Source: an uncultured Deinococcales bacterium (GTDB lineage Bacteria; Deinococcota; Deinococci; Deinococcales; JAAFIG01). Taken from it: a DNA stretch of 64,000 nucleotides. Position numbers and translations under genes: made by a program. The first letter of the stretch is position 1, and each line of letters starts with the position of its first letter. The notes under the pieces are model-generated. The model was not told the origin of the DNA. It did not search any database and saw nothing but the letters and a program-made list of their open reading frames with translations. Shown here one piece after another: positions 37,952 through 58,154 of this stretch. Location of the stretch: positions 1-64,000 of the forward strand of contig CAXTTL010000002.1 of NCBI GenBank assembly GCA_964247135.1, written 5' to 3'.

Positions 37952-40900
37952 TTAGTCCTGTTCAATCAATGACAGGGCAACATCTCGAGCCAGAATGCCA
38001 ATTGCCGAAGCTTGGTGCTGTTTGACTAAAATTGACAGTTGCTCGCGTCTTTGTTGGTCCCAATTACCTTCAAAGACCAAGGCTGCAAAATCCTTGTACT
38101 CGGTTGCCAATTCGGAAGTGAGTATCACGTCATAATTGCTTGGTGGTTGTAAAACAAACTCGAGCATTTCAGGGGTATGTTTACCCAATCGCCAAGCGGC
38201 ATGAAGATGGGAGAGTGCCCAAAACCAATCGTTTTTTGGTGTTTGTGTCAACTTAAAAGCTTTTTCGTAATCGCCAAATGAAAGTGCGTACTGAACTTGA
38301 AGTAAATTTTCCAAATCCTCACCAATAGAAATATCAATCAGTGGTAACTGTGCCACAAAACCATCGCCGAGTTCAAGCGTAATACGTGTAATCCATCCTT
38401 GCGCAAGCGACTCGAGTTGATGGTCATGAATTTGCTCGAGTTGTGTTCTGGCTTGCTCAAGTTGACCGAGAGCATACTCGCAAATCGCAGCATTGAAAAC
38501 GGCGTATGATTGATAATTGATTAATCCACTGCGTTTTATGAATGCAAGTGAACGATCAAGACGTAATTTTGCAGTTATGAAATTGCCATTATTCATTTCG
38601 AGCAAGGCAATATTGATTCCAATAATAATTTCTATTCTAACATCACCGATTTTTTCGGCAAAAGCCACAGCCTTTTCCCAAGCAGAGGCTGTTTCGGGAA
38701 TACGGTGTTGTCCATGAAACGTAAGACCTAGATCATTCCAGACGCTGGCGAGCAAATGACTATTTTGTGATTGTTCAGCAAGCTGAATCGCCAACTTCAG
38801 CAAATATTCCGAACGTTGCAAACGCCCTTGTTCACGTTCAAGTCCTGCCAACCCTGAAATCGCCAATGCCTGCCCAACAAAATCTTTTGCTTGCTTGGAA
38901 GCCCTGAGCGCCTCGAGTCCAGCATGTTTTGCCAACCTCACATCCTGCCGCTCTCGCAAAATCGCGCTTTGCTCGAGACACAATGGGGCATAGGCGGGTT
39001 CTTCGCGTTTGGGTTCGCCCACCAGTCGCAGTGCCTCATCCAAAGAGCCGCGCAAGCGCAAGGCTTTGGCGACGCTGACCCGAGCGTTCAGTGAGGCTTC
39101 CAATCCTCCCTCGAGCAATTCGGCGCTGTCCATCACGGTTTTCCACAAGGTTATGGCTTCAAGGTTGCGTCCCATGAACGATAAAACTTCTGCCAGTTGA
39201 TGCCGCACTTTCATGGTTTCCAGGCGCTCACCCTCGAGTTTTTCGCTGGCAGTTAACGCCATGCGGTAGGCGCGTTCGGCTTGCGGGTAGGCGAACGCAT
39301 GTTGCGCTGCCAAACCTGCTTCCAAACCTTTTTGCAGGGTTTGTTCAAACATGCCAGCCTCGAGGTAATGTTCGGTCAACTCGAGCGGTGCGGCGCGGGT
39401 TTCGAGCAGTGCGGCGGCTTTGGCGTGCAGGCGACGGCGTTTGAGGCTCATCAAGCCAAGCGCCAGCAGTTCGGCGTAACTGGGGTGCGTGAACCTGAAA
39501 CCCTCGCCGTTCGTGCCTGGGGTTTCGATCATCAGTTTGGCGCGTACCAGCGTCTCGAGCGCGTCGAGGGCGGCGTCATCTGACCAGTCCAGCAGCGCTC
39601 GGGCGTCTTCAAACAAAAACGCGCGACCCAAAACGCTGGCGGCTCGGGCAAACTCGAGGGCAGGTTGTGGCAGCGCGCTGATGCGGTGGCTGAGCAGGTC
39701 GTTTAAGGTTTCGGGCAAGCCGGTCAGGTTTCGATTCCATTCGTAGACGCCAGCACGCCTGTAGACCGCACCCGATTCGAGCATGGCTTTCAGGCGTTCC
39801 TCGAGCACCCAGGGGTTGCCGCCAGCGCGTGAGACGAGTTCAACTTCCAGTGCTGGGTCAAGTTCATCGTCCATTAGCGCCCGCAGCAACTCGAGCGTCA
39901 AGGGTTCGGACAGTGGCTCGAGGTGAACAATACGTTTTGGATTTAAGCCTTTGGGGTGCGTGGTGTTTTCGGGCAGGTCTTCGAGGCGGTACGAGATCAT
40001 CATTTTTGTATTCTCGAGGGCGCGAGTGCTGTGTGCCAGCAATTCAAGGGTGCTCGAGTCTGCCCAGTGCAGGTTTTCAAACGCCAGGATCGAGGTTTGA
40101 GAAATGTTCTCGAGCAATTCGGTGAAAGCTTCAAACAGTTTTAACCGCGCCACCTCGGGCGGCAAATTGCTGTCGCTGGCGGGCACAAAACCCAATTTGC
40201 TCGAGATGCGACCAAGTTCGCCTTTGGCGTTGTCAGACAGGTTCTCGAGCACCTCAGAATGGTGTTTTCCCAGGCTGGCGATCAACCTCGAGATCGTGCC
40301 AAACGGTGTGGGGTCATCAACGATGGCTTCGGCAATCACCAAGCGTTTTCCGTTCCCTTGAAGCCTTTCGCCCAGAGCTTTGAGCAACCTGGTTTTGCCC
40401 ACGCCAACATCGCCTGTCACGGCAATCAAACCCGTTTCAGACTCGAGGAAGGCATTTAAAACAGCCATTTCGGTGTCGCGTCCAACCAGTGGCGCAATCA
40501 AAATCGCGTCGGCTCGAGCAATTTCACTCGAGATTTCCACGGTGTTTTGAAGGTTTGCTTCCAGCGAGGCGAGCAAGGCTTCTTTGACGGCGAAGGCGCT
40601 CTGCGGACGGTCGAGCGGATTTTTTGCCAGCATCTGCAGCACCAGCGCGTTTAAGCTTTCGGGCACGTTCGGGTTGACATCTTTTGGGGCTGGGGGCGTG
40701 CCTTGAATGTGCTGCATGATGACCTGCACGATGCCCTCGCCCGTGAAGGGTGGTCGCCCCGTCAAGGCACTAAAGAGCACCGCTCCAAGGGCGTACAAAT
40801 CGGCGCGGTAATCGAGTTGCTGCCCTCGGCATTGTTCGGGAGCCATGTACAAGACCGTGCCGACCACCGCGCCCTCCCTGGTCAGTGCCACGCTGCCCTC

Positions 40901-41359
40901 GAGCGTTTTTGCCAGTCCAAAATCCATCAGTTTGGCGTTGCCGCTTTCGGTGACACGAATGTTTTCGGGTTTTAAATCGCGGTGCACAATGCCTTGCGCA
41001 TGAACCGCCGAGAGGGCGCTGGCAACGCCCGCAAAGACCTGAATCAGTTTCTCGAGTGGTGGATTGTCTTTGAGCCAATCGTTTAAGTCTGTGCCGCGCA
41101 CGAATTCCATGATTAAAAAAGGAATCGCGTTTTCTTCGCCCAAACCCAGCACTTTCACCACGTTTTCGTGTTCGATCCGCTCGAGCGATTTGAACTCGCG
41201 CCGCAAACGCACGCCGCCCTGTAAAGCCACGGCTTCGTGCAGGCGTTTGACCGCCACAAACTGCCCTGTGTCTTTGTCCAGCGCCAGACTGACACGACCC
41301 ATTGCGCCAGAGCCTAGCTCTCGGACAAATTGGTAGCGTTGGCTCGAGGAGACGGACAT
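37952..41359 (-). CDS. Hanks-type Ser/Thr kinase fused to AAA/STAND-like ATPase and TPR domains
   Basis: LGSGAMGRV, VAVK, HRDLKPEN, MDFGLAK and GTVLYMAPEQ; LVGRD and Walker A GDVGVGKT; ENLHWAD; TPR tail. Confidence 0.9.
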   Translation of the reverse strand: MSVSSSQRYQFVRELGSGAMGRVSLALDKDTGQFVAVKRLHEAVALQGGVRLRREFKSLERIEHENVVKVLGLGEENAIPFLIMEFVRGTDLNDWLKDNPPLEKLIQVFAGVASALSAVHAQGIVHRDLKPENIRVTESGNAKLMDFGLAKTLEGSVALTREGAVVGTVLYMAPEQCRGQQLDYRADLYALGAVLFSALTGRPPFTGEGIVQVIMQHIQGTPPAPKDVNPNVPESLNALVLQMLAKNPLDRPQSAFAVKEALLASLEANLQNTVEISSEIARADAILIAPLVGRDTEMAVLNAFLESETGLIAVTGDVGVGKTRLLKALGERLQGNGKRLVIAEAIVDDPTPFGTISRLIASLGKHHSEVLENLSDNAKGELGRISSKLGFVPASDSNLPPEVARLKLFEAFTELLENISQTSILAFENLHWADSSTLELLAHSTRALENTKMMISYRLEDLPENTTHPKGLNPKRIVHLEPLSEPLTLELLRALMDDELDPALEVELVSRAGGNPWVLEERLKAMLESGAVYRRAGVYEWNRNLTGLPETLNDLLSHRISALPQPALEFARAASVLGRAFLFEDARALLDWSDDAALDALETLVRAKLMIETPGTNGEGFRFTHPSYAELLALGLMSLKRRRLHAKAAALLETRAAPLELTEHYLEAGMFEQTLQKGLEAGLAAQHAFAYPQAERAYRMALTASEKLEGERLETMKVRHQLAEVLSFMGRNLEAITLWKTVMDSAELLEGGLEASLNARVSVAKALRLRGSLDEALRLVGEPKREEPAYAPLCLEQSAILRERQDVRLAKHAGLEALRASKQAKDFVGQALAISGLAGLEREQGRLQRSEYLLKLAIQLAEQSQNSHLLASVWNDLGLTFHGQHRIPETASAWEKAVAFAEKIGDVRIEIIIGINIALLEMNNGNFITAKLRLDRSLAFIKRSGLINYQSYAVFNAAICEYALGQLEQARTQLEQIHDHQLESLAQGWITRITLELGDGFVAQLPLIDISIGEDLENLLQVQYALSFGDYEKAFKLTQTPKNDWFWALSHLHAAWRLGKHTPEMLEFVLQPPSNYDVILTSELATEYKDFAALVFEGNWDQQRREQLSILVKQHQASAIGILARDVALSLIEQD

Positions 41360-41620: not shown

Positions 41621-41649
41621 TTGCAAAATCATAAACCCCATGCTATAAT
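41621..41649 (+). promoter_or_regulatory. Near-consensus sigma70 promoter
   Basis: TTGCAA-N17-TATAAT with extended TG. Confidence 0.75.
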
Positions 41650-41726
41650 TACGTTAATAACAGAAATCTCGAGACTCAATACGCTCCCCTCCCCAAAATT
41701 TCGCACATCACGCCATCAACCAGAAA

Positions 41727-41788
41727 GCTCGAGGTGGAATCAGTTTCAAACCCAAGCACATCGCTGCACCTCGAGCGGTGTTTTTTGT
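41727..41788 (+). promoter_or_regulatory. Putative attenuator (terminator/antiterminator) in the 5' leader
   Basis: Terminator ACATCGCT/AGCGGTGT plus T-run; alternative perfect 10-bp pairing GCTCGAGGTG (41727) with CACCTCGAGC (41767). Confidence 0.5.
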
Positions 41789-41871
41789 TGTCTGAAAACT
41801 CCTGCCTGCACTCAGAACTCACAACCTCAACCATGCCAAACTAGGACATGGACTTATCGACTGGAACGACC

Positions 41872-42288
41872 ATGAACCTGACCATGACGGTGAAACAACT
41901 TGGGCGCAAAAAAGCGCTGACCACCCGAAACTACAGCCTCGGAAATTTCTCGAGTCAACCCACACTGACCGAACTGATCGAACGAATTGTGATGCTCGAG
42001 GTGAATGCGTTTCGTGAACGTCAAGCCGACAATCAATTCTTGCGGGTTTTAACCGAAAACCAATTGCTCGAGGCGTCTGAGACGGGCAAAATCAGTTTGG
42101 GCGGACAAGAATTTTCGCAAGAGGTGAACGTTGACGACGCCATCCAAACCGCGATTCAGGCGTTTCAAGACGGTTTGTATTACGTTTTTAACGGTGAAAC
42201 GCAAATCGAATACTTGTCCGATGTCGTCAACCTTGAGCTTCGTCAGGACATTGTGTTTTTACGCCTTGTCGCCTTGGTCGGAGGATAA
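41872..42288 (+). CDS. Hypothetical protein with a MoaD/ThiS/ubiquitin-like C-terminus ending in Gly-Gly
   Basis: ...GLYYVFNGETQIEYLSDVVNLELRQDIVFLRLVALVGG-stop. Alternative start at 41848. Confidence 0.75.
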   Translation: MNLTMTVKQLGRKKALTTRNYSLGNFSSQPTLTELIERIVMLEVNAFRERQADNQFLRVLTENQLLEASETGKISLGGQEFSQEVNVDDAIQTAIQAFQDGLYYVFNGETQIEYLSDVVNLELRQDIVFLRLVALVGG

Positions 42289-42290
42289 TT

Positions 42291-45200
42291 GTGATCAGCC
42301 GTGAAGAAGCTCAGAAAAGACTTGCCGATACTCGAGTCAAAAATCCAAACGTTGTTTTGGCAGGGCGCATCCAAACTTTGCCCGAGCACTTAACGCAAAT
42401 CACGCTCGATTACTTGTGCTTAGACGCCAACGGCGACGAGCCAAAGTTCTCTGATTACCAAGCCCGCAACAAGTTCGATGAAGCCGCCAAGAGCGCCTTT
42501 TTTCAAACCTCGAGCGACGATTTTGCCTTGATTCTCGAGACGTGGTTTCCGCGCTTTCCCAAGGTGGCGCTGTCAGCCTTGCAAGCCCCTGTCACCTACC
42601 GTTTTCGCAGCAGCGTCATGCCCAGTTTGACCTCGCAATTCGAGACCGCCAAAGGCTGGTTGGCGTACACCCGCGCTTACGATCAGCCGCTCGAGTGGAT
42701 GACCGAGTACGCGGGTTACGAATGGGCTTTTCAGTATTACACCATGCCGCTGTTCTTGGCGGCGGTGGATTCTGGCAACGATGCCGTGTTTGAAATCATG
42801 CTCGCAGCCGCCAAAAGCGAACATCCTGTGGCGGTCATGGGCGACTACGTGATCGACACTTTAATGCGTTCCAATCGACCCGAGGGTTGGGATTTGCTCG
42901 AGAAACTGCTGCTCGCCGCGCAGCGTCAGGAGGGTTTACGGCAGAGCATTTTCAATAAAATCATGATCGCTCACCCAACGGCTTTAAAACGAATGATACA
43001 TTTGATTCTGGACAACGACCTGCTGCGGTTTTCCTCGAGCGTGCAATGGGCGATTTCATTCCTGCCACTCGCGCCAATCGAACCCACGCCCAAAGTTTTA
43101 GAAGATGCGGTTCGGGATTTTTTGACGCGGCTCGAGCATCAAGATGCAAGTCGCGCGATTGTTAAAAATTTGAAAGGCACACCAGATTGCCGCGATTTGT
43201 ACTTGGCGTTGTACGTGCTGGCAGTCGAAAATCTCGAGGAAGCCCAAAGTTTGGGTTTGCTATGGCTCAAGCACAAAGACGCCAAGTACCGTTTTGTGGC
43301 GCTGCATGTGTTGCAACGTTTTGATCTTGCCACCCACCCAGATGTGATCGCGTTGTTGTCCGACAAGGACGACATGGTGGCACTCAAAACGCGTTCTTTT
43401 GTGATCTTGCCTCGTGAAACACCCGAACAAGCACTGGCTTCGTTTCAAACCCTGAAAAAGTTTCTCGAGCGTTTCCCTGCCAAGCTCGAGTTGAAAAGCC
43501 CAGAACTTTGGATGGGTGCTGTCGCAACTGACCCAAGCGACATTGCGGGGCAGATGTTTGACTTTGTCAATAACGAAAATGCGCGTTTGATGATGCCCTA
43601 CAAGCACTTGTTAAACCCTTGGACGTTGCGCAGCCTGATGGATAAACTCACCGAACAAAAGCCGTGGGATTTTGAGGTTCGTGGCATGGTGATCGAGGCT
43701 TTGACCGCCAAAGACAATTACTTGCGCGAACGGGCTTTTGTCACCATGAAGGAAAGCAAAGCCGCGCTTGAGGAAAGCGATTTTGTTGCGCTCGAGAAGC
43801 AGTTAAGTCGTAAAACCGCATCGGTGCGCAAAGACACGATTGAACTGATTTTGGCGCAACCAGCCGAATTCGCTAGCGCCAGCGCAACCCGTTTAAAAGC
43901 CGCCAAAACCCCCGAGCAGAAAAAAGCGGGTGAAGAAATCGCCAAAGCGCTCGAGAGTGTCCGACTCGAGCAAAACGTACCAAGTGCGGCGGACGGCTTT
44001 GGATTGTTCGACCCCAACAAGCGCAGTCCAGCCTTTAAGCTTGAGCGCAAAAATGTTCAACTCGTCACGCCCGCCGCACTGGCGGTTTTGGGATCGCTCG
44101 AGAAACTGGTTTGGCAGCACCGTTTGACCGTGGTGGACGAGATCAATTGGAGCAATGAGGTTTCGCAAAAACCGTTTGAAAACACCTGGTTGCGTGCTCC
44201 GAGCTTTCACGACACCGAAAATCCGTTGCTCGAGCAGTGGAAGAAATTCCCGTTGTCTGAAACTTGGACGGCATGGTTTGAAAACCGCACGACAAAAGAG
44301 CGCGACACTGATGGACTCGAGATTTTACGTGCCATTGCGATTCGACCTTTTATGTTTCAATCCATCTTTAACGATGATTACTACGATGAAAATTTCAATT
44401 ACGACCTCGAGCCTGACAATGACGACGCTGGCACAAGCAATTTGGGTTTGCAAAAAAGCTATTTTGGCAGTTTAAGACCCGTCAAACGCAAAGACGAAGA
44501 TCAACGCCTCGAGAACAACATGGTGCAGATTTTGTACTGGCTCAAAGAGTTGTATCCAGCCGTGGGTGAGCACGATTTCGCGCTCGACTTGCTCGAGGAT
44601 CAACTCGCACAAAGCATTCCTCTTCTCGAGCAAGGTTTTCAAAAATTCGTCGAGAAAAATACGTTGCTGCCCGACGAAGTGGCGCTGAGGGAAAACAAGG
44701 ACTATCAAACCTTTAAAAAATTACTTCCCGTCATCGTCAAACTCCAACCCAGCGCTGCCGCCTTGACCAGCGCTCAACAGGCTCGAGCGTGGCAACTCGA
44801 GCACAGCATGAGTTTGCGGCTGTGGTGGAATGGCAGCCGCACAATCAACCACTCGCATCTGATGGCGGCGTTCAGGGCGGGTATTGCGAATCAAACTGAT
44901 GTGATGGAGGCTTTGATCGGTCCGAGTCATTTGCGTCCCAGCAAAAATGTCGTTTGCAACAATGGTTTCACCGACCACCTAACACAAAAACCATCAGAAT
45001 TCCTCAAAACATATCCAGAACTTCAACCCATGCTCGAGCAGTGCGCCGACCGTGTGCTCGAGATTGAATTGCAACGCGGGGATTTGCCAACGCCAGCCAC
45101 GATTGCGGCAACCCGAATTCGGTTTTTGTCGGGTTTGGGACGTTTAATGCCGATTCTCGAGGTGATCGGGCAGGACAATATTTCGCGTGGTGCTGGGTAC

Positions 45201-47159
45201 TATTATCAAGATCAAACGCCGCGATTGGTGGTGTTCTCCGACCTTCTGAAAGCCGTTTATCCCAGCCCCAGCGACACCCAAGCCAATTTTGACAAAGCCA
45301 TCAAAAAAGCCAAAATTCCCGAACAGCGCCTGCTCGAGCTTGGATTGTTCGCGCCGCAATGGACGCAATTTGTCGCCAAGAATATCGGTTGGAAGGGGTT
45401 AAGCGATGCGATGTACTGGCTTCGGGCGCACACCAAAGACGGTGGCTTCAGCAACGATTCCGAACTCGAGGGTTGGAAACTCGAGATGGCGCAACTGACG
45501 CCGCTTTTGACCCAGGATTTGGTCGATGGCGCGGTCGATGTCAGTTGGTTTAATCAGGCGTACAAAGACCTTGGCGACAAGCGCTGGACACAACTGTACG
45601 ATGCTGCCAAATACATTTCTTCGGGGACGGGTCACGCCAGGGCAAAACAGTTTGCCGACGCAATGCTGGGCAAATTACTCGAAGCCGATGTGGTCAAACG
45701 AATCACGGGTAAACGCCATCAGGACAGCGTTCGTGCGCTTGGACTGATTCCTCTGCCCAAAGCCAAAGACGCGGTGCTTTTGGCGCGTTACGAGGTCGTG
45801 CAAACCTTTTTAAAGCAAAGCAAGCAATTTGGTTCGCAACGCAAAGAATCCGAACGACTCGCGTCACGCATTGCACTCGAGAATTTGGCACGCACCGCAG
45901 GGTTTCCAGACCCGATGCGGCTCGAGTGGGCGATGGAATTAAAAGCCGTGGCAGACCTCTCCAAAGGCGCGGTCAAGCTTAAAAAGGACGATGTCGAACT
46001 GGTCTTGTCGGTCACAACCGACGGCGAACCGACGCTCGAGGTTTTGAAATCGGGTAAAACCTTAAAGGACATTCCCACTAACCTCAAAAAAGATGACGCC
46101 GTGATCGAAATTCGCGCCCGAAAAAAGGAACTCGAGAATTCACGCAGCCGAATGCGGGTTTCCTTAGAGCGTGCAATGGTGCATGGTGATGCCTTTACTG
46201 CAAAAGAACTCCGCGACCTGACCAAACACCCAATCGCCCGTCCGATGCTCGAGCAACTGATTTTTATCGACGATGCACAACTGGGGTTTCTCTCGCCCGA
46301 CGGTAAAAACCTGGTCAGTGCAAACGGCGAATTGCTCGAGATCAAAGGCTCGAGTTTGCGCCTTGCGCACCCCGTGGATTTGTTCGAGTCCAAAACCTGG
46401 TCTGAATGGCAGAGCGCGTATTTTACGGCGCAACGTCAGCAACCGTTCAAGCAAATCTTCCGCGAGTTGTACCTGCTCACACCAGCCGAGAAACTCGAGA
46501 AAACCAAATCCAGCCGTTACGCGGGGCATCAAGTCAACCAACGCCAAAGTGCGTCATTGCTTGGTTCAAGGGCTTGGGTGGTCAGTTACGACGGCGATGC
46601 CAGCCGAACTTTTTTTAAAGAGGGCATCACCGCGCACATCGGCAGCAAGCAAGGTTATTCAACGCCAGCCGAAGTTGAAGCCCCCGCGCTCGAGACGGTT
46701 TCGTTTTCCAAACGCGGTGGTTGGGAGGCGCTCGACCTCGAGAGCATTCCAAAGCGTTTGTTCTCCGAAGTCATGCGTGACCTTGACTTGGTGGTTTCGG
46801 TGGCGCACGTCGGCGGCGTTGATCCCGAAGCCTCGCAAAGCACCACCGAAATGCGGGCGGCGTTGCTCGAGGAAACATTGCGGTTGCTCAAGATTAAAAA
46901 CGTCAAACTCGAGAAAAACCTGGCATTGATTGAAGGGCAGATTGGGCGTTACAGCGTGCATCTTGGAAGCGCGGTGGTACATCAACAACCTGGCGGCGCG
47001 ATCTGTTTGGTTGCCGTGCCGAATCAGGCTCGAGGTCGGATTTTCTTGCCGTTTGCGGATTCTGATCCGCGCACGGCGGAAGTGATTGCCAAGGTCATCT
47101 TGTTAGCGAAGGATTCTGAGATTCAAGACCCTATTCTGCTGCGGCAATTGGTCGGATAA
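42291..47159 (+). CDS. Large DUF4132-family (MolR/YehI-like) HEAT-repeat protein
   Basis: AAQRQEGLRQSI, RFSS; C-terminal KQFGSQRKESE, LERAM, HPIARPMLEQL, LAHPVDL, QPFKQIFRELY, FSEVMRDLDLVVSVAHVGGVDPEAS and RGRIFLPFAD.DP.TAEV. Confidence 0.82.
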   Translation: MISREEAQKRLADTRVKNPNVVLAGRIQTLPEHLTQITLDYLCLDANGDEPKFSDYQARNKFDEAAKSAFFQTSSDDFALILETWFPRFPKVALSALQAPVTYRFRSSVMPSLTSQFETAKGWLAYTRAYDQPLEWMTEYAGYEWAFQYYTMPLFLAAVDSGNDAVFEIMLAAAKSEHPVAVMGDYVIDTLMRSNRPEGWDLLEKLLLAAQRQEGLRQSIFNKIMIAHPTALKRMIHLILDNDLLRFSSSVQWAISFLPLAPIEPTPKVLEDAVRDFLTRLEHQDASRAIVKNLKGTPDCRDLYLALYVLAVENLEEAQSLGLLWLKHKDAKYRFVALHVLQRFDLATHPDVIALLSDKDDMVALKTRSFVILPRETPEQALASFQTLKKFLERFPAKLELKSPELWMGAVATDPSDIAGQMFDFVNNENARLMMPYKHLLNPWTLRSLMDKLTEQKPWDFEVRGMVIEALTAKDNYLRERAFVTMKESKAALEESDFVALEKQLSRKTASVRKDTIELILAQPAEFASASATRLKAAKTPEQKKAGEEIAKALESVRLEQNVPSAADGFGLFDPNKRSPAFKLERKNVQLVTPAALAVLGSLEKLVWQHRLTVVDEINWSNEVSQKPFENTWLRAPSFHDTENPLLEQWKKFPLSETWTAWFENRTTKERDTDGLEILRAIAIRPFMFQSIFNDDYYDENFNYDLEPDNDDAGTSNLGLQKSYFGSLRPVKRKDEDQRLENNMVQILYWLKELYPAVGEHDFALDLLEDQLAQSIPLLEQGFQKFVEKNTLLPDEVALRENKDYQTFKKLLPVIVKLQPSAAALTSAQQARAWQLEHSMSLRLWWNGSRTINHSHLMAAFRAGIANQTDVMEALIGPSHLRPSKNVVCNNGFTDHLTQKPSEFLKTYPELQPMLEQCADRVLEIELQRGDLPTPATIAATRIRFLSGLGRLMPILEVIGQDNISRGAGYYYQDQTPRLVVFSDLLKAVYPSPSDTQANFDKAIKKAKIPEQRLLELGLFAPQWTQFVAKNIGWKGLSDAMYWLRAHTKDGGFSNDSELEGWKLEMAQLTPLLTQDLVDGAVDVSWFNQAYKDLGDKRWTQLYDAAKYISSGTGHARAKQFADAMLGKLLEADVVKRITGKRHQDSVRALGLIPLPKAKDAVLLARYEVVQTFLKQSKQFGSQRKESERLASRIALENLARTAGFPDPMRLEWAMELKAVADLSKGAVKLKKDDVELVLSVTTDGEPTLEVLKSGKTLKDIPTNLKKDDAVIEIRARKKELENSRSRMRVSLERAMVHGDAFTAKELRDLTKHPIARPMLEQLIFIDDAQLGFLSPDGKNLVSANGELLEIKGSSLRLAHPVDLFESKTWSEWQSAYFTAQRQQPFKQIFRELYLLTPAEKLEKTKSSRYAGHQVNQRQSASLLGSRAWVVSYDGDASRTFFKEGITAHIGSKQGYSTPAEVEAPALETVSFSKRGGWEALDLESIPKRLFSEVMRDLDLVVSVAHVGGVDPEASQSTTEMRAALLEETLRLLKIKNVKLEKNLALIEGQIGRYSVHLGSAVVHQQPGGAICLVAVPNQARGRIFLPFADSDPRTAEVIAKVILLAKDSEIQDPILLRQLVG

Positions 47160-52978: not shown

Positions 52979-54061
52979 TTAACGCCAAGTTCGGCTGAGG
53001 GTTTCGGTCGCTGCCTCGCGCACACTTGGGCTTGGGTCTTGGGTCAATCTTTTTAAGATTTGATTCGATGCCACGCCAACGTATGCCACCTGCCAGCGCA
53101 CGTCCTCATCTGGATCGCTGGCGAGTTGCTCGAGCACCCAGGCTGGCGTCTTTGTGGCTTTGGCGTAAGCCAAGGTTCGCCGCACCTCTGGGTTTTGGTC
53201 TTTGAGCAAAACTTCAAACATGGCTTGCCCCAGATCGTCGCGGCTTGCGATATTCTTGCGCACGTCGGCACTCGAGTCTTTTGCCAGAATCAACATTTGA
53301 TCTTGTGGTAAATCATGATGCCCTGCCAGGCATTCCCGAACTTTTTCATCGGGGTCGATCACCAAATGATTGTGAAATTGAGGAATCCAAGCATAAAGCT
53401 TGGCAATCTCGAGCCGAACTTCGGAATTCACGTCTCTAGATAGGGTTTGCAACAGATTGATTTCGCCGCGCTGACGCAGGTTTTCGACACTCGAGGCTCG
53501 GACGCTGGCAGCGGGGTCGGTGGCTAACATCCGCAGTTCTTTGATCGGAACAAGATTGTTCCAGGCGACCGCGCCACGCACCAGCGGGTCGGGGTCTTGG
53601 GAAAGTTTTTCGAGGACGGCAATTGGACAGGCGTCGCGCACAGCGACATCGAAGCGCACCAAAGCATCGGAGTCTTCGCTCAGTTTTGTAAAAATCGCGG
53701 CAGTACAATTTTTGTTGTCAGTGACGGCACGGCGCACCGCAGCGTCAGAATGCCGTGCAAGTTGCGCCAACAGCTCGGCTGGAGTTTGAATGCTTTGCGC
53801 CACGGCGATGCAAACCGTATTTTGTTTGTGTTTGGCAAGTTTCTCGAGGATTTCCAGGTTGATGTTGGGATTGCTTGCCACCGCTTTCAGAATCGTCCAT
53901 TTGCCGTGCCCACTGAGGTACTCGAGTGCGGCAAGGGGGGCTTTGGGATTCACCGCCACGGCGTACTGCACAGTTGGGTCGGGAAGTTTGGCTAACTCGA
54001 GTAACCGAGATGCCAGGGTTTTTTTGCTTTTTGCTTCTTTTTTAAGCGTGGCAATGTTCAT
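52979..54061 (-). CDS. HEAT/leucine-rich-variant (LRV) repeat protein
   Basis: ~24-aa repeats LE.LA.DP...VR..VA.N. Start uncertain (54061-54145). Confidence 0.8.
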   Translation of the reverse strand: MNIATLKKEAKSKKTLASRLLELAKLPDPTVQYAVAVNPKAPLAALEYLSGHGKWTILKAVASNPNINLEILEKLAKHKQNTVCIAVAQSIQTPAELLAQLARHSDAAVRRAVTDNKNCTAAIFTKLSEDSDALVRFDVAVRDACPIAVLEKLSQDPDPLVRGAVAWNNLVPIKELRMLATDPAASVRASSVENLRQRGEINLLQTLSRDVNSEVRLEIAKLYAWIPQFHNHLVIDPDEKVRECLAGHHDLPQDQMLILAKDSSADVRKNIASRDDLGQAMFEVLLKDQNPEVRRTLAYAKATKTPAWVLEQLASDPDEDVRWQVAYVGVASNQILKRLTQDPSPSVREAATETLSRTWR

Positions 54062-54234
54062 CAATTCATTTTGCAGCATCACAAGATTTGAAAACTTGAG
54101 ATGCCAAATCATTTCGGCTTCACTGGGGTTACCACCTCGAGTCATTGTTCTGTAGCATAAAGAAATGCTTGAGATTCGTCTTCATCAATTCTTGTTGTAA
54201 GAAAAAAGCAATACACCCAGGGTAAAGATAAGCC

Positions 54235-54690
54235 ATGCGACTGATTGATTGGATCAAAAAAATGCTGGCTGGCGAAAAACCCGACGAAAGTTTCAAACTC
54301 GAGGGTGAGCAGAAATTCATCAAAGGACTCGATGTCATGGCGGCACTCGAGGCGCACCTCAAATGGCGCTCTCGACTCGAGCAGTATATTTTGGGCGATC
54401 ACACCGAAAAACTTGATTACAACGTGGTTTCAAAAGACAATGTTTGCATCTTGGGGCAGTGGTTGTACGGCGCCGGATACCAAATTTTCATGCACGTCCC
54501 AGAATACGCCTCACTCGGACGCGCCCACCGCGAGTTTCACGTTTTTGCGGGACAAATCCTTGAGGAATACCAGACCGGCAGCAAAGACGGTGCGAAACGA
54601 TTGCTGGCAGAACAATTTAATGCCTACTCTGGGAACGTTCAAACAGCGCTGGTAAAACTCCATAAACTCGCGCACGGCAACGAAGTTTAA
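54235..54690 (+). CDS. Stand-alone CZB (chemoreceptor zinc-binding) domain protein
   Basis: AHLKW, CILGQWLY and AHREFH (3His-1Cys pattern). Confidence 0.85.
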   Translation: MRLIDWIKKMLAGEKPDESFKLEGEQKFIKGLDVMAALEAHLKWRSRLEQYILGDHTEKLDYNVVSKDNVCILGQWLYGAGYQIFMHVPEYASLGRAHREFHVFAGQILEEYQTGSKDGAKRLLAEQFNAYSGNVQTALVKLHKLAHGNEV

Positions 54691-54708
54691 ATTGATCTCG
54701 AGAATCGA

Positions 54709-55275
54709 TCACTTTGGTTTTACTGGGTTGAACATCTCGAGTCCGCCGGCTTTTAAAAACCTACCCTTCAGACTCTCGAGGCTCTCTACAGGCTTTGAAC
54801 TGGCATCCCCTGGCAATGTTCCCGCAAAGACCTCGAGCGCGTCTGTAAAGCCATCTGAATCGCTGTCAGCATCAAACACGCCTCGAGCGTCGTACTGGGT
54901 TTTTAAGGCATCCAGTTTGGCTTCGGGTTTGCTGTCGCGGTCTGTAGGATTTGACCCTGCCATGCGCTCGAGCGAATCTGGAATGCCGTCATGGTCGGTG
55001 TCGCCGCCATAACGCAAGCCCGAGTACAGCGCCGCGTTGATGTCTTGCTTCTTGCCGCGCCAGAACCCGACGGCGTAACCAAAACTGTTCCAACCCACGC
55101 CACCGTTCGGGCTGACATGGCACAGCACACAACCTGAACGCTCGAGCGCACTCCCTGAGATTTTCTCAAAATGCAGTACCCTGCTGGCAACCCCTAAATA
55201 GTCACTGCGGGCGCTGACCCCCGCACAAATCAGCAAACTCGAGACAATAAAAGCAAAGCCATGAACGGGTTTCAT
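54709..55275 (-). CDS. Secreted protein with c-type heme motif and thrombospondin type-3-like repeats
   Basis: Signal peptide, CVLCH, DTDHDGIPD..E...GSNP and DSDSDGFTD..E...GTLP. Confidence 0.75.
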   Translation of the reverse strand: MKPVHGFAFIVSSLLICAGVSARSDYLGVASRVLHFEKISGSALERSGCVLCHVSPNGGVGWNSFGYAVGFWRGKKQDINAALYSGLRYGGDTDHDGIPDSLERMAGSNPTDRDSKPEAKLDALKTQYDARGVFDADSDSDGFTDALEVFAGTLPGDASSKPVESLESLKGRFLKAGGLEMFNPVKPK

Positions 55276-55314
55276 GGCTTTTGGATGATTGTTTTTGAAA
55301 ATAGTTCCCAGGGT

Positions 55315-57384
55315 TTAGCTTTTCACCAAGTCGCGGATGAACAAATTGAACGACAGGATCGGCGCATAGGTTTCGATGTTGACCAGCAACGTGCCGTCTG
55401 GGGCGTACTTGCGCACGATATGCCCGCCGCGTCTGGCGGCGTAAACTTGCCCTTGGTGGTCGATGCCGATGTCCATGACGTTGTTGGTGTCCTCGCCGTG
55501 AAGCGGTTCGATGTTGAAGCTTTGCCCCTGTTTGCCGGCTGGGAAAATCAGCGACCTGATCTTGGAACTGCTGGCGTCGGCGATGTACAGCACCCCAGTG
55601 GCATCGACGCCCACGCCGTCAAGGACGCGGAGTTCGCTCGATTCGGAATTGATTTTAAAGCTGAAGCGTTGAATAAATTCGCCCTCTTTGGTAAAACGCT
55701 GCACCTGACGGTTGCCGTAATCGAGCACGTACACAAAACCGTCGCTGCCCGCAATGACGTTGCGCGGGTCGTCAAAGGTGCCGCGTCCCGCGCCGCGCCC
55801 ACCAAATTTGGAGATAAATTGACCCTCGAGCGTGAAGCGTTGCACCATGCAAGCCTCGCTGTCGAGCACATACACCTGATCCCAGGGGGCGACGCTGATG
55901 GCGGCAGGGTACAAGAAATCGCCTGGTTTCATGCCGTAATTGCCGAAGGCGCTCAGCTCAACGCCGTTTGGGTCGAGCTTGCGAATCATTTTGGGGCTGC
56001 TCTCGCCGGCGCGGTACTCGAACACGGCGGCAAACAAGTTTAAGTCTCGATCCGCCGCCACCGCGACTGGCGCGGCTGGAAACTTGTCCGCGCCCTGCCC
56101 GATGCTCGAGAGGCTGCGCTCGAGGTTGCCCTTGCCGTCCAGAATGCGCAGCGGTCCTTTGCGCGAATTTAAACTGACCACGAGTTGCACGGGTCCGTCA
56201 AGGCTGCTGCTGCCCTCGAGCAATCCCACATCGACGGCTTCGATCACCTCGTTCAAGGAGGCGCGTTTTTCGGGGTCTTTTTCGATCATGCGCATGACCA
56301 GGTCGTTGAGTTTTTGGCTGACCTCGAGGTTGACCTGGCGCGGTGGGGTCGGGGTTTGAAAGATTTGGGCTTGAACCACGGCTTCGTACCCGCCTTTAAA
56401 GGCGGTGACGCCCGTGACCATCTCGTAGAACACCAAGCCCAGGCTGTAAATGTCGGTGCGGTGATCGATTTTTAAGCCCCTGGCTTGTTCTGGACTCATG
56501 TAGACGGGTGTGCCCACCCGAGCGCCGGTCATGGTCAAGCGGGTCAAAACCTTGCCGGCGGCAATCCCAAAGTCCATCAACTTCACGCCGCTGGCTTCGA
56601 TGCTGGGCGGGTTAAAACCCATCGCGGATTTGGTGACCATGATGTTGCCAGGTTTGATGTCGCGGTGAATGATGCCTTGCTTGTGAATGTAGCGCAGCGC
56701 ATCGGCGGTGGCACGCAAGACCATCGTGCTGTGCTCGAGCGTCAAACGTCTGGTTTCGATCAGGCTCTCCAAACTTTCGCCCTCGACAAATTCCATGCTG
56801 ATAAAGTGGGTGGTGCCCTCGTTGCTGTGCTCGAAGACTTTAATGATGTTCGGGTGATTCAGGCGCATCAGGACTTCGGCTTCGCGGTGAAAACGGCGCA
56901 CGAATTTGGCGTCGGCAACAAATTTTTCTTGCGGGATTTTTAAAGCCACAATCTTGGAGTCGTCCTTGCGCAAAGCGCGGTAGACCGTCGCCATGCCGCC
57001 GATGCCCACACGGTCACGCAGTTCGTAGCGCGATAAGCTCGAGTTGCCCTCGCCTTTGATGTTGTTGGCGTTGATTCCAGCCAAGGTTGGGGTGCGACCT
57101 GTTTCGCGCGATGGTCGGCGTTTGTTGGACCTTGGACGGGCGTAAGCCGTTCCGAGCGGCACGAGCGAGGACACCAGAATGATGGCGGCAATCACCAGGC
57201 TGGCGTCGGCGCGGTGCGGATTGGAGACGCCACCGCTGAAGGCTGGGGTTTGCGCCAAGAAGAACAGCGCTATCGCAAAAACCAGACCCGCACCAGCCGC
57301 CACAAGCGTGGTCAGGATGGCGGGCAAGCGCCAGAAAATAAACACGGCAAAGGCAAACAAGCTCAGCAGCAAAATCGCGGTCAT
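55315..57384 (-). CDS. Membrane-anchored Ser/Thr kinase with C-terminal NHL-repeat beta-propeller
   Basis: N-terminal TM helices, GIGGMATVY, HRDIKPGN, MDFGIA, GTPVYMSPEQ, then NHL repeats (F..P..I...G.VYVLD). Confidence 0.9.
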   Translation of the reverse strand: MTAILLLSLFAFAVFIFWRLPAILTTLVAAGAGLVFAIALFFLAQTPAFSGGVSNPHRADASLVIAAIILVSSLVPLGTAYARPRSNKRRPSRETGRTPTLAGINANNIKGEGNSSLSRYELRDRVGIGGMATVYRALRKDDSKIVALKIPQEKFVADAKFVRRFHREAEVLMRLNHPNIIKVFEHSNEGTTHFISMEFVEGESLESLIETRRLTLEHSTMVLRATADALRYIHKQGIIHRDIKPGNIMVTKSAMGFNPPSIEASGVKLMDFGIAAGKVLTRLTMTGARVGTPVYMSPEQARGLKIDHRTDIYSLGLVFYEMVTGVTAFKGGYEAVVQAQIFQTPTPPRQVNLEVSQKLNDLVMRMIEKDPEKRASLNEVIEAVDVGLLEGSSSLDGPVQLVVSLNSRKGPLRILDGKGNLERSLSSIGQGADKFPAAPVAVAADRDLNLFAAVFEYRAGESSPKMIRKLDPNGVELSAFGNYGMKPGDFLYPAAISVAPWDQVYVLDSEACMVQRFTLEGQFISKFGGRGAGRGTFDDPRNVIAGSDGFVYVLDYGNRQVQRFTKEGEFIQRFSFKINSESSELRVLDGVGVDATGVLYIADASSSKIRSLIFPAGKQGQSFNIEPLHGEDTNNVMDIGIDHQGQVYAARRGGHIVRKYAPDGTLLVNIETYAPILSFNLFIRDLVKS

Positions 57385-58154
57385 GTCATCACCTGCGCGA
57401 TCACACCCGTAATGTTGTCAGGTCCACCGCGTTGGTTTGCCAGACCAATAAAATACTCGAGCGCCATTTGCAATGCCGAGCCACGGTTGAGTTCATCCAA
57501 AAATTCGTCGATGCGGACTTGGTTGTGCAAACCGTCCGAGGTCAGAATAAACGTATCACCCGTCGAAATTGGAAAGCTTAATACATCCACCACGACCTGA
57601 GGACGCGTGCCGAGCGCTCGAGCCAGCAGGTTTCGGTATTGATGGTTTTCGGCTTGTTCGCGTGTCAAAATACCCTTTTCGACCTGTTCTTCGACCCAGG
57701 AATGGTCTTTGCTGATTTGTTGCACCTGCCCTTTGCGCACCAGATGCGCCCTCGAGTCACCGACATGCCCCAGAATACCCTTTCGGTCATACAAAATGAG
57801 TACCGTCAAGGTGGTGCCCATGCCGTCGCGTTCTGGAAACTCGAGCGCGGTTTTGTAAATCGTGCGGTTGGCAGCTTGAATGCTCTTCTCGAGCGCCTTC
57901 TCGAGCGGAATGGCGGCGTTGCCATTTGCGACAAAATCAACGTAATCGCTGATCGCTTTGGTCACGACATCGACCGCAATTTTGCTGGCGTACTCTCCGG
58001 CGGCGGCGCCACCCATGCCGTCAGCCACAGCCAAAAACACCAAAGGTCCTTTGGTGGTCTGGAAGGTTTTGACTCGGTGATAGTCCTCGTTGGAATCGCG
58101 GACGCGACCCACGCTCGAACCATGCCCGAAATTAACTCCTGGTCGTGTCTGCAA
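57381..58154 (-). CDS. PP2C-family Ser/Thr phosphatase
   Basis: GRVRDSNED, VADGMGG, MGTT, HVGDSR, DHS, SDGL and GGPDNIT; overlaps the kinase start. Confidence 0.93.
   Translation of the reverse strand: MQTRPGVNFGHGSSVGRVRDSNEDYHRVKTFQTTKGPLVFLAVADGMGGAAAGEYASKIAVDVVTKAISDYVDFVANGNAAIPLEKALEKSIQAANRTIYKTALEFPERDGMGTTLTVLILYDRKGILGHVGDSRAHLVRKGQVQQISKDHSWVEEQVEKGILTREQAENHQYRNLLARALGTRPQVVVDVLSFPISTGDTFILTSDGLHNQVRIDEFLDELNRGSALQMALEYFIGLANQRGGPDNITGVIAQVMT

Follow-up and report, generated by a model that had tools for sequence, protein, structure and literature searches.

A small Gly-Gly-ended protein of predicted beta-grasp fold and a giant DUF4132-DUF7737 protein form a conserved two-gene module with a candidate DdrO operator

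The analysed window is a stretch of 64,000 nucleotides, and all features described below lie on its forward strand. The small ORF (41848-42288) encodes a protein of predicted beta-grasp (MoaD/ubiquitin) fold with a length of 146 aa, or of 138 aa when it is read from an alternative ATG at 41872. Its C-terminus is ...DIVFLRLVALVGG, and the last ten residues, FLRLVALVGG, are followed directly by a TAA stop codon (42286-42288). Only two bases (TT) separate this stop from GTG 42291, the start codon of the large ORF (42291-47159), which encodes a partner protein of 1622 aa. According to Pfam, this partner consists of a DUF5724 arm (PF18991; about aa 1-1215), a DUF4132 domain (PF13569; aa 1255-1429, nt 46053-46577) and a DUF7737 domain (PF24879; aa 1520-1620, nt 46848-47150), with scores of 602.5, 158.5 and 110.9 bits against gathering scores of 25, 27 and 27, respectively. 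The terminal Gly-Gly is encoded by GGA GGA (42280-42285), a Shine-Dalgarno-like sequence five nucleotides before the GTG, and the two genes are a translationally coupled module. Both ORFs, the Gly-Gly end and the two-nucleotide gap are as described in the original prediction, but its start codon for the small gene (41872, 138 aa) is not favoured. ATG 41848 is kept in seven of seven aligned relatives and the position of ATG 41872 is occupied by GTG, GTC or TTT in four of them, so the small protein probably has 146 residues.

The pairing of the small gene with a DUF4132-type gene goes far beyond chance. Among 80 independent loci from at least six phyla, 77 have a DUF4132-type gene directly downstream of the small gene. 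In 201 Deinococcota genomes, DUF7737 was found in 55 and the small-protein profile in 55, with 54 genomes containing both, and each of the five genomes with two small genes also has two DUF7737 matches. A survey of 151 genomes of one actinomycete order gave nine genomes with DUF7737 and nine with the small-protein profile, eight of them shared. Presence and copy number thus agree in all but one of the 55 Deinococcota and all but one of the nine actinomycete genomes, and the co-occurrence of the two genes that had been proposed proved to be strict. The constant part of the partner is DUF4132 plus DUF7737; the DUF5724 arm is absent from short forms.

Beyond the pair itself, clustering of the neighbours of the 80 loci yielded no conserved neighbour. 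Generic genes recur, namely MalT/LuxR-type STAND regulators (18 loci), ABC ATPases (16 loci) and histidine kinases (8 loci), and several neighbour clusters are antisense ORFs inside the big gene. The original prediction had stated that no E1, JAB, MoxR, VWA or SWIM gene is adjacent, and none was found among the ORFs of at least 180 aa between 27.9 and 61.6 kb, i.e. about 14 kb on each side, where E2 and rhodanese signatures were not found either. A Pfam scan of the larger neighbour clusters of the 80 loci gave no E1, E2 or JAB either, and the large protein itself has no ThiF, E2, JAB or rhodanese signature (Pfam, E <= 0.1). The E1-E2-JAB operon of a ubiquitin-type conjugation system is accordingly missing from the locus and from the scanned neighbour clusters. 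ThiF-family genes do occur on other contigs of the genome (two above the Pfam cut-off), together with one Prok-JAB gene. PADLOC and NCBIfam gave no match for either protein of the pair.

The small protein does not belong to any family in Pfam, NCBIfam or PADLOC. At E <= 0.1, its sole Pfam match was a sub-threshold hit to CFAP300, with no ThiS/MoaD (PF02597) among the results, and a search of the PDB with the small-protein profile returned no ThiS/MoaD chain and nothing meaningful. Of the marks of a ThiS/MoaD-type carrier, it therefore lacks the sequence profile and possesses the C-terminal Gly-Gly. A single-sequence AlphaFold2 model was unusably poor (pLDDT 48.5), and the prediction was rerun with an alignment of 148 sequences. 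The resulting model (pLDDT 75.5, pTM 0.66) is a beta-grasp with a helical insert of ~55 residues, which is the fold that had been expected. The top match in a full structural scan was MOCS2A/MoaD (5mpo_B; Z 8.1, rmsd 3.6, 80 of 84 residues aligned), a moderate score given the tool's caveat that best Z values of 7-8 are common for models without a clear match. The other rows listed were ubiquitin-like, MoaD/ThiS/SAMP, DIX, Ras-binding or ferredoxin-type beta-grasp domains. Foldseek found no match for the model in the PDB at E <= 0.001; the best of its weak matches were to MoaD (probabilities 0.89 and 0.94), with ubiquitin and SAMP1 also among the top ones. It is the consistency of these match lists, with scores that are moderate, that places the modelled protein in the beta-grasp (ubiquitin-like) superfamily. 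Among 447 candidates for a longer, fused version of the small protein, none reached E <= 0.001, which the tool rates as weak evidence.

The C-termini of 251 homologues of the small protein end in GG (224) or GA (12), some end in GI, GR or GM, and one Bacteroidota clade ends in G-x-x-aromatic. The description as a GG-terminated family is thus correct for most members but not for all. At the DNA level, it has to be considered that the terminal glycines could be a by-product of the downstream Shine-Dalgarno sequence and meaningless in the protein. GGAGGA does lie five nucleotides before GTG 42291, and GGA is the commonest first glycine codon where the genes abut (19 of 27 loci, vs 2 of 13 at distances of 13-147 nt). 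However, all 13 loci with a spacing of 13-147 nt end in GG and use GGC, GGT and GGG codons as well. Over all 80 loci, GG stands directly before the stop codon in 77, encoded by 16 different codon pairs and followed by the next gene at spacings of 1-147 nt. GG is also retained at two loci without the downstream gene (L035 and L036) and in 12 of 12 small proteins of a diverged short-form paralogue in Deinococcus. Since the GG end depends neither on the glycine codons used nor on the spacing, the survey refutes the by-product reading, which we consider hardly credible, and bears out the proposed conservation of the glycines independent of Shine-Dalgarno spacing. The GG end is very likely functionally required.

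When the small protein was co-folded with its partner, three runs gave ipSAE values of 0.76, 0.75 and 0.76, compared with 0.14 for the best of three controls. The models have 185-190 contacts, at least 94% of which agree between runs, and a partner pLDDT of 86. Of 157 solved complexes, 116 attain the tool's mark for ipSAE, as do 2 of 215 mismatched pairs; these counts apply only roughly here because we used our own alignments, and such scores express the confidence of the model and are not a measurement. The interface list and the invariant columns delimit a predicted docking region at 46365-47150 (aa 1361-1619), which includes QPFKQIFRELY (46440-46472), MRDLDLVVSVAH... (46773-46835) and RGRIFLPFADSDP (47031-47069). 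On the side of the small protein, the invariant residues G11, V40, G72, A90, D100, Y103 and L132 and both terminal glycines lie in the predicted interface (138-aa numbering). In the model, the invariant Gly loop (G72) sits on FRELY, the last strand runs along the LFLPF strand and the tail touches the core. Of the motifs named in advance as the contact site, FRELY and part of RDLDLVVS lie in the modelled interface. Where the C-terminal region of the large protein had been suggested to activate, bind or conjugate the small one, the co-fold with its controls argues for binding, and we regard it as very probable that the small protein is a dedicated binding partner of the large one. An interface of this size (~185 contacts) is no less fitting for a permanent subunit than for a transient carrier. 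Many Asp, His, Arg and Ser residues of the DUF4132-DUF7737 core are invariant. Searches of the PDB for its fold, by sequence with the last 422 aa and with a profile of the last 510 aa, gave nothing meaningful, and the ESM Atlas had neither a usable match nor a structure for aa 1240-1622.

Within the predicted interface lies Cys1572 (codon 47004-47006), which is invariant in proteins whose partner has a free GG or GA end. At the corresponding column 460 of the C-terminal alignment, all 79 modules with GG or GA ends have Cys and all eight with an aromatic extension of the tail have Ser or Ala, a count that leaves out 19 modules which could not be assessed. Of the 510 columns, no other combines at least 90% conservation elsewhere with a change in each of the three Bacteroidota long forms that were tested first; among Bacteroidota short forms ending in GG, four of four have kept the Cys. 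As the exceptions come from one Bacteroidota clade (8 of 87 tips, support 1.0), the covariation of Cys and tail amounts to one evolutionary event. This covariation is the only, and an indirect, pointer to a possible covalent chemistry. In the Bacteroidota long forms the pair persists although both the Cys and the free GG end are missing, and binding alone must therefore already be useful. A role of Cys1572 as a Cys protease that trims tail extensions was rejected, since no module has both the Cys and an extension.

Upstream of the small gene, a sigma-70-like promoter (41621-41649) consists of TTGCAA, a 17-nt spacer and TATAAT with a TG before the -10 box, and agrees with the consensus at 10 of 12 positions. 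The region contains three promoter-like sites, no more than shuffled sequences do; the site at 41621-41649 is conserved in close relatives. The -10 box is abutted by a 17-bp RDRM-like operator, TTACGTTAATAACAGAA (41649-41665), a candidate site for the DdrO repressor. The 64-kb window contains no second match (0.22 expected by chance); the pattern was an RDRM consensus relaxed at its centre, so that the match is partly post hoc. The operator is conserved at about -221 in loci L001-L004. With at most one mismatch, an RDRM is found upstream of the small gene in 29 of 39 Deinococcota loci, vs 6 background matches in 250,686 nt. With this palindromic 17-bp RDRM in its promoter, the locus has the sequence feature that characterizes the radiation/desiccation response (RDR) regulon of Deinococcus. 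The 5' leader contains a terminator-like hairpin with a T-run (41758-41791), possibly an attenuator; its stem is maintained, in L005 through a compensatory change, and no Rfam family matches the leader. Three Peptidase_M78 genes (IrrE-type domain) are present in the genome, an observation that is not specific.

The orthologues in D. radiodurans are DRA0165 and DRA0166, i.e. a 134-aa protein ending in ...LTALAGG and, after 2 nt, a DUF4132 protein of 1626 aa; trxC and two YeeE/YedE genes precede the pair. PMC8533742 reports a ChIP-supported RDRM at -83 and lists DRA0165/DRA0166 as a DdrO/IrrE-dependent target that is induced by DdrO depletion, with DRA0166 also induced by mitomycin C. According to PMC9650054, an RDRM is absent at DR_A0165, a statement in conflict with PMC8533742 and with our survey of 39 Deinococcota loci. 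The passages of PMC9650054 on DR_A0165 ('SEP068184') describe a gene whose knockout makes the cells more resistant to H2O2 and whose overexpression sensitizes them, and name DR_A0166 just as the neighbouring gene. Pull-down and co-IP with DR_A0165 recovered Trx1 and 157 other proteins, the latter being those common to N- and C-terminally tagged baits (PMC9650054). As a C-terminal tag would block conjugation, these 157 interactions are not GG-dependent. In the portions of PMC8533742 and PMC9650054 that deal with the two genes, DR_A0165 figures as a small peptide specific to Deinococcus and DRA0166 as an uncharacterised protein with DUF4132; no mention is made there of the beta-grasp fold, of the obligate pairing, of the occurrence in several phyla or of GG as a feature of the C-terminus. 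Our results recast DR_A0165 from a genus-specific stress peptide into a subunit of a conserved multi-phylum pair that is tied to the DdrO/IrrE DNA-damage regulon. Together, the RDRM operator and the published data on these orthologues back the idea of a stress system, one of the two functions that had been proposed for the pair.

We slightly favour an interpretation in which the coupled module consists of a dedicated beta-grasp protein and an enzyme-like giant on which it docks, possibly with a Cys-dependent step. The free Gly-Gly carboxylate would be presented to a conserved pocket beside Cys1572, and a thiol-dependent covalent step at this residue might lead to a thioester, or to an acyl-persulfide/thiocarboxylate. 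Such a step would be comparable to that of MoaD within MoaE or of a ubiquitin-like protein on the cysteine of an E1 or E2. The N-terminal arm, which is variable and consists of DUF5724 in the long forms, could recruit a target under DNA-damage or oxidative stress. The covalent Cys-dependent step itself is put forward tentatively, as a possibility that falls somewhat short of an even chance. In its furthest form, the DUF4132-DUF7737 core would be a new, E1-unrelated and damage-induced enzyme with an origin independent of E1-E2-E3 and a distribution over at least six bacterial phyla, which charges its own beta-grasp partner through a thioester or acyl-persulfide at Cys1572 and modifies, or signals on, a target recruited by the giant HEAT-like arm; we consider this conceivable but unlikely. 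A doubtful but serious competitor is that the small protein serves, without any covalent step, as a structural or regulatory subunit that completes or gates the DUF4132-DUF7737 core. GG would then be kept since the tail fits a narrow groove with a salt bridge to its carboxylate, and Cys1572 would be a packing residue. The very large interface with its several invariant small-protein residues agrees with this, as do the lack of E1, E2 and JAB genes found nearby, the homologues ending in GI, GR or GM and the Bacteroidota long forms that retain the pair without Cys or free GG. However, the exact GG end in two deeply diverged paralogous lineages and six phyla speaks against it. Within the last 510 residues, the lone otherwise-invariant column to have changed in all three Bacteroidota long forms first tested is the Cys, alongside the tail, and the invariant Asp, His, Arg and Ser of the core exceed the needs of a scaffold.

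Two further explanations start from known carriers and modifiers. If the small protein carried sulfur in the manner of MoaD, ThiS and TtuB, its GG end would be adenylated and thiocarboxylated by a housekeeping E1 of the ThiF family whose gene lies elsewhere, and the partner would be a sulfur-using synthase with Cys1572 in a persulfide relay. MoaD/MOCS2A is indeed the best structural match, and in the co-fold the tail docks into the partner as the MoaD tail docks into MoaE in the MoaD-MoaE structure. The ThiF-family and Prok-JAB genes on other contigs, the position of the D. radiodurans pair after trxC and two YeeE/YedE genes, and the recovery of Trx1 with DR_A0165 (PMC9650054) also point in this direction. 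We nevertheless judge it improbable: Pfam ThiS/MoaD is not matched at E <= 0.1, the partner gave no match to a known sulfur-insertion fold, and the 80 loci show no conserved neighbour beyond the pair, the trxC/YeeE neighbourhood being missing from the conserved clusters. Even less probable is a free modifier similar to Urm1, SAMP or TtuB that is put on many targets after stress, with the giant as its ligase or scaffold. The beta-grasp fold with its GG end and the stress induction (PMC8533742) would suit such a modifier, and PMC9574740 provides a precedent in Urm1, which forms conjugates without E2 or E3 under oxidative stress. The 157 proteins recovered by DR_A0165 co-IP (PMC9650054) might be taken for its targets, but they are shared with the C-terminally tagged bait. 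Furthermore, several invariant residues of the small protein lie in the predicted interface with its own partner, with no separate conserved surface for an E1 or a target identified, and the 1:1 linkage in gene order and copy number fits a dedicated pair.

DUF4132 proteins are large and widespread, and their biochemistry is unknown. For one branch of them, the dedicated pair described here offers three handles, namely a partner with a predicted ubiquitin fold, a predicted docking surface, and a cysteine and a Gly-Gly end as targets for mutation. Chemical activation of the tail would make the module a protein-tagging or sulfur-transfer system whose operon lacks an E1; without such activation, it would still be a two-subunit stress machine that has gone unrecognised, in an organism amenable to genetics.

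Among known systems, the module shares with MoaD-MoaE and ThiS-type carriers the small beta-grasp protein (best match 5mpo_B, Z 8.1), the Gly-Gly end and the predicted docking of small on large protein with tail contact. In contrast to MoaD-MoaE, it has no sequence-family match, a helical insert of ~55 residues, DUF4132-DUF7737 in place of MoaE, no E1 in the operon and a link to a DNA-damage regulon rather than to cofactor synthesis. The bacterial Bil, Bub and CBASS Cap2/Cap3 operons and the archaeal/Thermus SAMP and TtuB systems are defined by E1 (ThiF-type), E2 and JAB genes beside the ubiquitin-like gene. The module resembles them in its predicted beta-grasp protein with a C-terminal Gly, and its structural matches include a multi-ubiquitin protein from bacteria (9d59/9d5b); a conserved Cys of the large protein covaries with the free Gly end. 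Unlike Bil, Bub and CBASS Cap2/Cap3, it has no adjacent E1 (ThiF-type), E2 or JAB gene, and PADLOC does not detect it. The DUF4132 domain is shared with MolR/YehI-type proteins of E. coli, which was PF13569-positive as a control genome but DUF7737-negative; in the module, both Cys1572 and the strand that pairs with the small protein in the model lie in DUF7737. Pup, which is small and disordered, contains Gly-Gly at its C-terminus (GGQ or GGE) and is ligated by PafA, a glutamine-synthetase-like enzyme unrelated to E1. The module differs from Pup-PafA in the predicted beta-grasp fold of its small protein and shows no similarity to either component detectable by Pfam, but Pup-PafA does set a precedent for a Gly-Gly-containing small protein that is ligated by an E1-unrelated enzyme.

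The small ORF on the forward strand terminates in DIVFLRLVALVGG. Its last two codons, GGA GGA (42280-42285), are followed by the stop TAA (42286-42288), and the large gene opens two bases past this stop with a GTG at 42291 and runs on the same strand to 47159 (1622 aa). The ORF pair and its coordinates were thus confirmed as first described, except for the start of the small gene. The start at 41872 had been proposed, which yields 138 aa, and it is doubtful: an ATG at 41848 (146 aa) is kept in 7/7 aligned relatives, whereas position 41872 is GTG, GTC or TTT in four. Because of this conservation the small protein is probably 146 aa long; its residue numbers refer here to the 138-aa form, which is the form that was searched and folded. 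Pfam assigned DUF5724 (602.5 bits), DUF4132 (aa 1255-1429, 158.5 bits) and DUF7737 (aa 1520-1620, 110.9 bits) to the large protein, and the small protein belongs to no family in Pfam, NCBIfam or PADLOC. Among ORFs of at least 180 aa between 27.9 and 61.6 kb, none encodes an E1, JAB, MoxR, VWA or SWIM protein, as the original prediction had claimed for the adjacent genes.

The scan of 185,579 species genomes yielded loci of which the best 80 were kept; these span Deinococcales, Chloroflexota, Armatimonadota, Cyanobacteria, Actinomycetota and Saprospiraceae. A DUF4132-type ORF lies directly downstream on the same strand in 77 of these 80. At one exception, L051, the contig stops 247 nt past the small gene. 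Two cyanobacterial loci carry an orphan small gene, intact and with a GG end: in L035 (10001-10552) only the last 31 codons of DUF7737 follow, which looks like a natural deletion of the partner, and in L036 (6304-7400) unrelated genes and an IS-like fragment follow, with a DUF7737 gene on another contig. In an independent test on whole genomes, DUF7737 was detected in 55 of 201 from Deinococcota and the small-protein profile also in 55, with 54 shared; in the two discordant genomes each match sits in a fragmented assembly. All five Deinococcota genomes with two small genes have two DUF7737 matches, and in two more the second DUF7737 match amounts to no more than a fragment or a frameshifted stretch. 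In 151 genomes of one actinomycete order, each was found in 9 genomes, 8 of them shared, and the genome of the window has exactly one copy of each gene. The predicted co-occurrence is borne out by this survey, and it is strongly supported that the two proteins form one dedicated unit.

Beyond the pair, nothing was conserved in the neighbourhood of the best 80 loci. The divergent gene upstream in the window (37952-41359, minus strand) encodes a 1135-aa Ser/Thr kinase with AAA_16 and TPR domains; a similar kinase adjoins the module in five other loci (L001, L002, L004, L059 and L079), and it is not a generally conserved neighbour. Downstream are genes for MeaB, FtsH and a Na+/H+ exchanger, and further out PriA and a minus-strand cluster (52979-58154) comprising genes for a protein with HEAT/LRV repeats (52979-54145), another Ser/Thr kinase, this one with NHL repeats (55315-57384), and a phosphatase of the PP2C type (57381-58154). 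In a Bacteroides finegoldii record (L143, 6239-8420), a gene for a rhomboid-family intramembrane protease ends 7 nt before the small gene, and the small protein of this lineage carries the C-terminal extension ...SGRLW.

A word-indexed search returned 106 homologues of the small protein (75-242 aa), and among 1.84 billion cluster representatives its profile matched 2122 at E <= 0.001, 912 of them at E <= 1e-10. Both terminal glycines are invariant in 40 diverse homologues; the chain stops there in 39 and continues for seven residues in one. The 251 proteins stored from both searches end in GG (224), GA (12) or otherwise (15), the last group consisting of fragments, short extensions (GGYF, GGIF twice, GGC, GG plus seven residues), single variants (GI, GR, GM) and the odd tails SGKPFLF and LRSS. 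A search for longer, fused forms found none, an absence which the tool rates as weak evidence. The tails in the best 80 loci (77 GG, one GA, two GG plus YY or YF) are partly ascertained, since one of the two scan patterns included the GG tail.

The GGA GGA codons could also serve as the Shine-Dalgarno sequence of the large gene, and we measured the stop-to-start distance in 40 loci in which the start of the large gene was fixed by an alignment from the first residues. It ranges from 1 to 147. At distances of at most 6, the first Gly codon is GGA in 19/27 loci; at distances of at least 9 it is GGA in only 2/13, and the GG ending is present in 13/13. The choice between synonymous Gly codons tracks the ribosome-binding role; the residues themselves do not. 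With 16 different GG codon pairs in use among the best 80 loci, GG as a mere Shine-Dalgarno by-product is ruled out. GG is thus conserved independently of spacing, and it is kept in both orphan loci; protein-level selection on the GG chain end is strongly supported.

A tblastn search of plasmid-labelled records matched a 412-kb replicon of D. radiodurans. Here trxC precedes a hypothetical protein of 134 aa with the C-terminus ...LTALAGG, and a 1626-aa DUF4132 protein starts 2 nt on. By gene order and length this pair is DRA0165 and DRA0166; a supplement of PMC9650054 gives DR_A0166 as 1626 aa. According to PMC8533742, a radiation/desiccation response motif (RDRM) lies at -83 of DRA0165, the operon satisfied combined transcriptomic, ChIP-seq and RDRM criteria, depletion of the repressor DdrO strongly up-regulates it, and mitomycin C induces DRA0166-V5 in an IrrE-dependent manner. 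We found the RDRM match TTATGCTATTTACATAA at -74 of the annotated start (L142, NZ_OV024759.1, 6900-7010), in line with the site described there. The window has a promoter-like site (TTGCAA, 17 nt, TATAAT; 41621-41649, plus strand) that abuts a candidate operator at 41649-41665 (plus strand), the only RDRM-type match in 64 kb (0.22 expected), for a pattern that is a consensus whose centre was relaxed after the site was seen, and so partly post hoc. Other loci lend independent support: an RDRM match with at most one mismatch occurs in the 400 nt preceding the small gene in 29/39 Deinococcota loci, from genomes that are related and not independent, at -54 to -86 in Deinococcaceae and at about -221 in the close relatives of the window; the background in these loci is 6 matches in 250,686 nt. 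That the module belongs to the DdrO/IrrE damage regulon in Deinococcota is strongly supported. The leader of about 200 nt from promoter and operator to the start codon contains a terminator-like hairpin with a T-run (41758-41791, plus strand), which relatives share, L005 with a compensatory change in the stem, and which matches no Rfam family; it may act as an attenuator or mark where a short RNA induced by damage ends.

DR_A0165 has been studied as the peptide 'SEP068184' in PMC9650054, where it is reported to rise after H2O2 and gamma irradiation, its deletion to increase and its overexpression to lower H2O2 resistance, and Trx1 to be pulled down by it. The same source terms it Deinococcus-specific and without RDRM; both statements conflict with the present data. 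The D. radiodurans pair (L142, 5350-6879) directly follows two YeeE/YedE-family genes of sulfur-transport type and trxC. This neighbourhood is not among the conserved clusters of the best 80 loci, and beside the reported Trx1 pull-down it is suggestive.

The small protein could not be modelled from its single sequence (pLDDT 48.5). A 148-sequence alignment gave a usable model (pLDDT 75.5, pTM 0.66) with strands at 4-10, 16-22, 103-107, 110-112 and 126-131, a tail after the last, a long helix at 32-68 and another at 87-99. Foldseek returned no match at E <= 0.001; its best weak rows were MoaD (1fm0_D, probability 0.89; 5mpo_A, 0.94), ubiquitin, SAMP1, ISG15 and a multi-ubiquitin protein from bacteria. 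A scan of 48,161 representative chains placed human MOCS2A/MoaD first (5mpo_B, Z 8.1, rmsd 3.6, 80 of 84 residues aligned), a score to be read with the tool's own warning that best Z values of 7-8 are common. The list is made up of ubiquitin-like domains, MoaD, ThiS, SAMP1, and DIX, Ras-binding or ferredoxin-type domains, the last three of which we take to be of the beta-grasp class. Because this list is uniform, rather than because of the score, we conclude that the small protein is predicted to be a beta-grasp with a helical insertion, as originally proposed. At the sequence level it is no member of the ThiS/MoaD Pfam family.

Its partners come in a long form of about 1600-1800 aa and a short form of about 820-1030 aa, the latter in Deinococcus, Actinomycetota and Bacteroidota (L145-L156, L175-L178, L184, L059, L064-L069, L071, L072, L074, L075 and L078-L080). 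Since short partners consist of DUF4132 and DUF7737 behind an unassigned N-terminal region, without DUF5724, these two domains are the constant core. The small protein of the short form, which ends ...KL[VT]PLVGG, has diverged, with the profile match starting from about position 30; in Deinococcus, 12/12 end in ...KLVPLVGG or a close variant. A short-form paralogue can share a genome with the long form (e.g. G017, G004, G204).

For co-folding, the small protein (148 alignment rows) was paired with the C-terminal 510 aa of the large one (36 rows). Three runs gave ipSAE values of 0.76, 0.75 and 0.76, against 0.14 for the best of three controls; these values are model confidence and not a measurement. 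The mark of the tool is passed by 116/157 solved complexes and 2/215 mismatched pairs, counts that are only a rough calibration here because our own alignments were supplied. The runs show 185-190 contacts, agree in at least 94% of them and give a partner pLDDT of 86; sequence searches revealed no comparable solved complex. On the large protein the predicted interface comprises aa 1361-1378, the FRELY motif region (aa 1389-1397), portions of MRDLDLVVSV, a helix spanning aa 1509-1533, the stretch that runs from Cys1572 through RGRIFLPFADSDP (aa 1572-1604), and aa 1613-1619. On the small protein it comprises the first hairpin, the helices, the invariant G72 loop, D100-Y103 and residues 128-138. 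The G72 loop and FRELY form the lowest-error pairing, strand 128-131 pairs with the LFLPF motif, and every tail residue touches the partner. The genetics and the pattern of conservation both fit the predicted complex.

The same 510 residues are rich in invariant polar residues: H248, Q272, Q276, R279, E280, Y282, R297, S380, R384, D385, D387, S391, R410, H445, S448, H452, R471, D478, D480, D496 and D501 (segment numbering; add 1112 for the full-length protein). When the alignment was extended by two Bacteroidota partners and that of D. radiodurans, exactly one column that is at least 90% conserved elsewhere differed in each of the three Bacteroidota long forms. This column, segment position 460, corresponds to Cys1572 (codon 47004-47006) and holds Cys in 36/36 other sequences and Ser, Ala and Ser in these three, whose small proteins lack a free GG and end in ...VGGYY, ...SGRLW and ...AGSIW. 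In a sample of 301 Bacteroidota genomes (DUF7737 in 10, whole modules retrieved), the long forms show Ser at this column, and their small proteins end in AGSYW (three), TGTYW or AGGYF; with the short forms the small protein ends in ...LVGG, and the Cys is retained in 4/4 assessable cases. Altogether, 79 modules with a GG (78) or GA (1) end have Cys, 8 with an aromatic extension have Ser (7) or Ala (1), and none is discordant; in 19 more, column 460 is not in the locus. As all sequences without the Cys fall into a single clade (8 of 87 tips, support 1.0), the switch is one evolutionary event, not eight, and the weight of the covariation lies in its specificity, the sole altered conserved column changing together with the tail. 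The pattern excludes a Cys protease that trims tail extensions and suggests either that the free carboxylate undergoes a thiol-dependent step or that both groups are tightly packed.

A covalent, Cys1572-dependent use of the GG carboxylate, which might take the form of a thioester on the large protein or of a persulfide relay making a thiocarboxylate, seems to us quite conceivable, if short of probable. An E1 encoded elsewhere is possible, because the genome has ThiF-family genes and one Prok-JAB, all on other contigs. The main rival, which we hold to be only slightly less likely, is a permanent non-covalent subunit with its tail seated in a tight pocket; the very large predicted interface and the existence of a Bacteroidota clade without the Cys favour it. 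A role of the small protein as a free modifier of many targets seems the least likely, since several of its invariant residues fall within the predicted contact surface for its own partner and no second conserved surface was detected.

In open-access and bioRxiv full text we found no paper on the fold of the small protein, the DUF4132-DUF7737 pairing or the spread across phyla. We regard the module as a Gly-Gly beta-grasp protein whose uncharacterised partner is without precedent and whose operon contains no E1.
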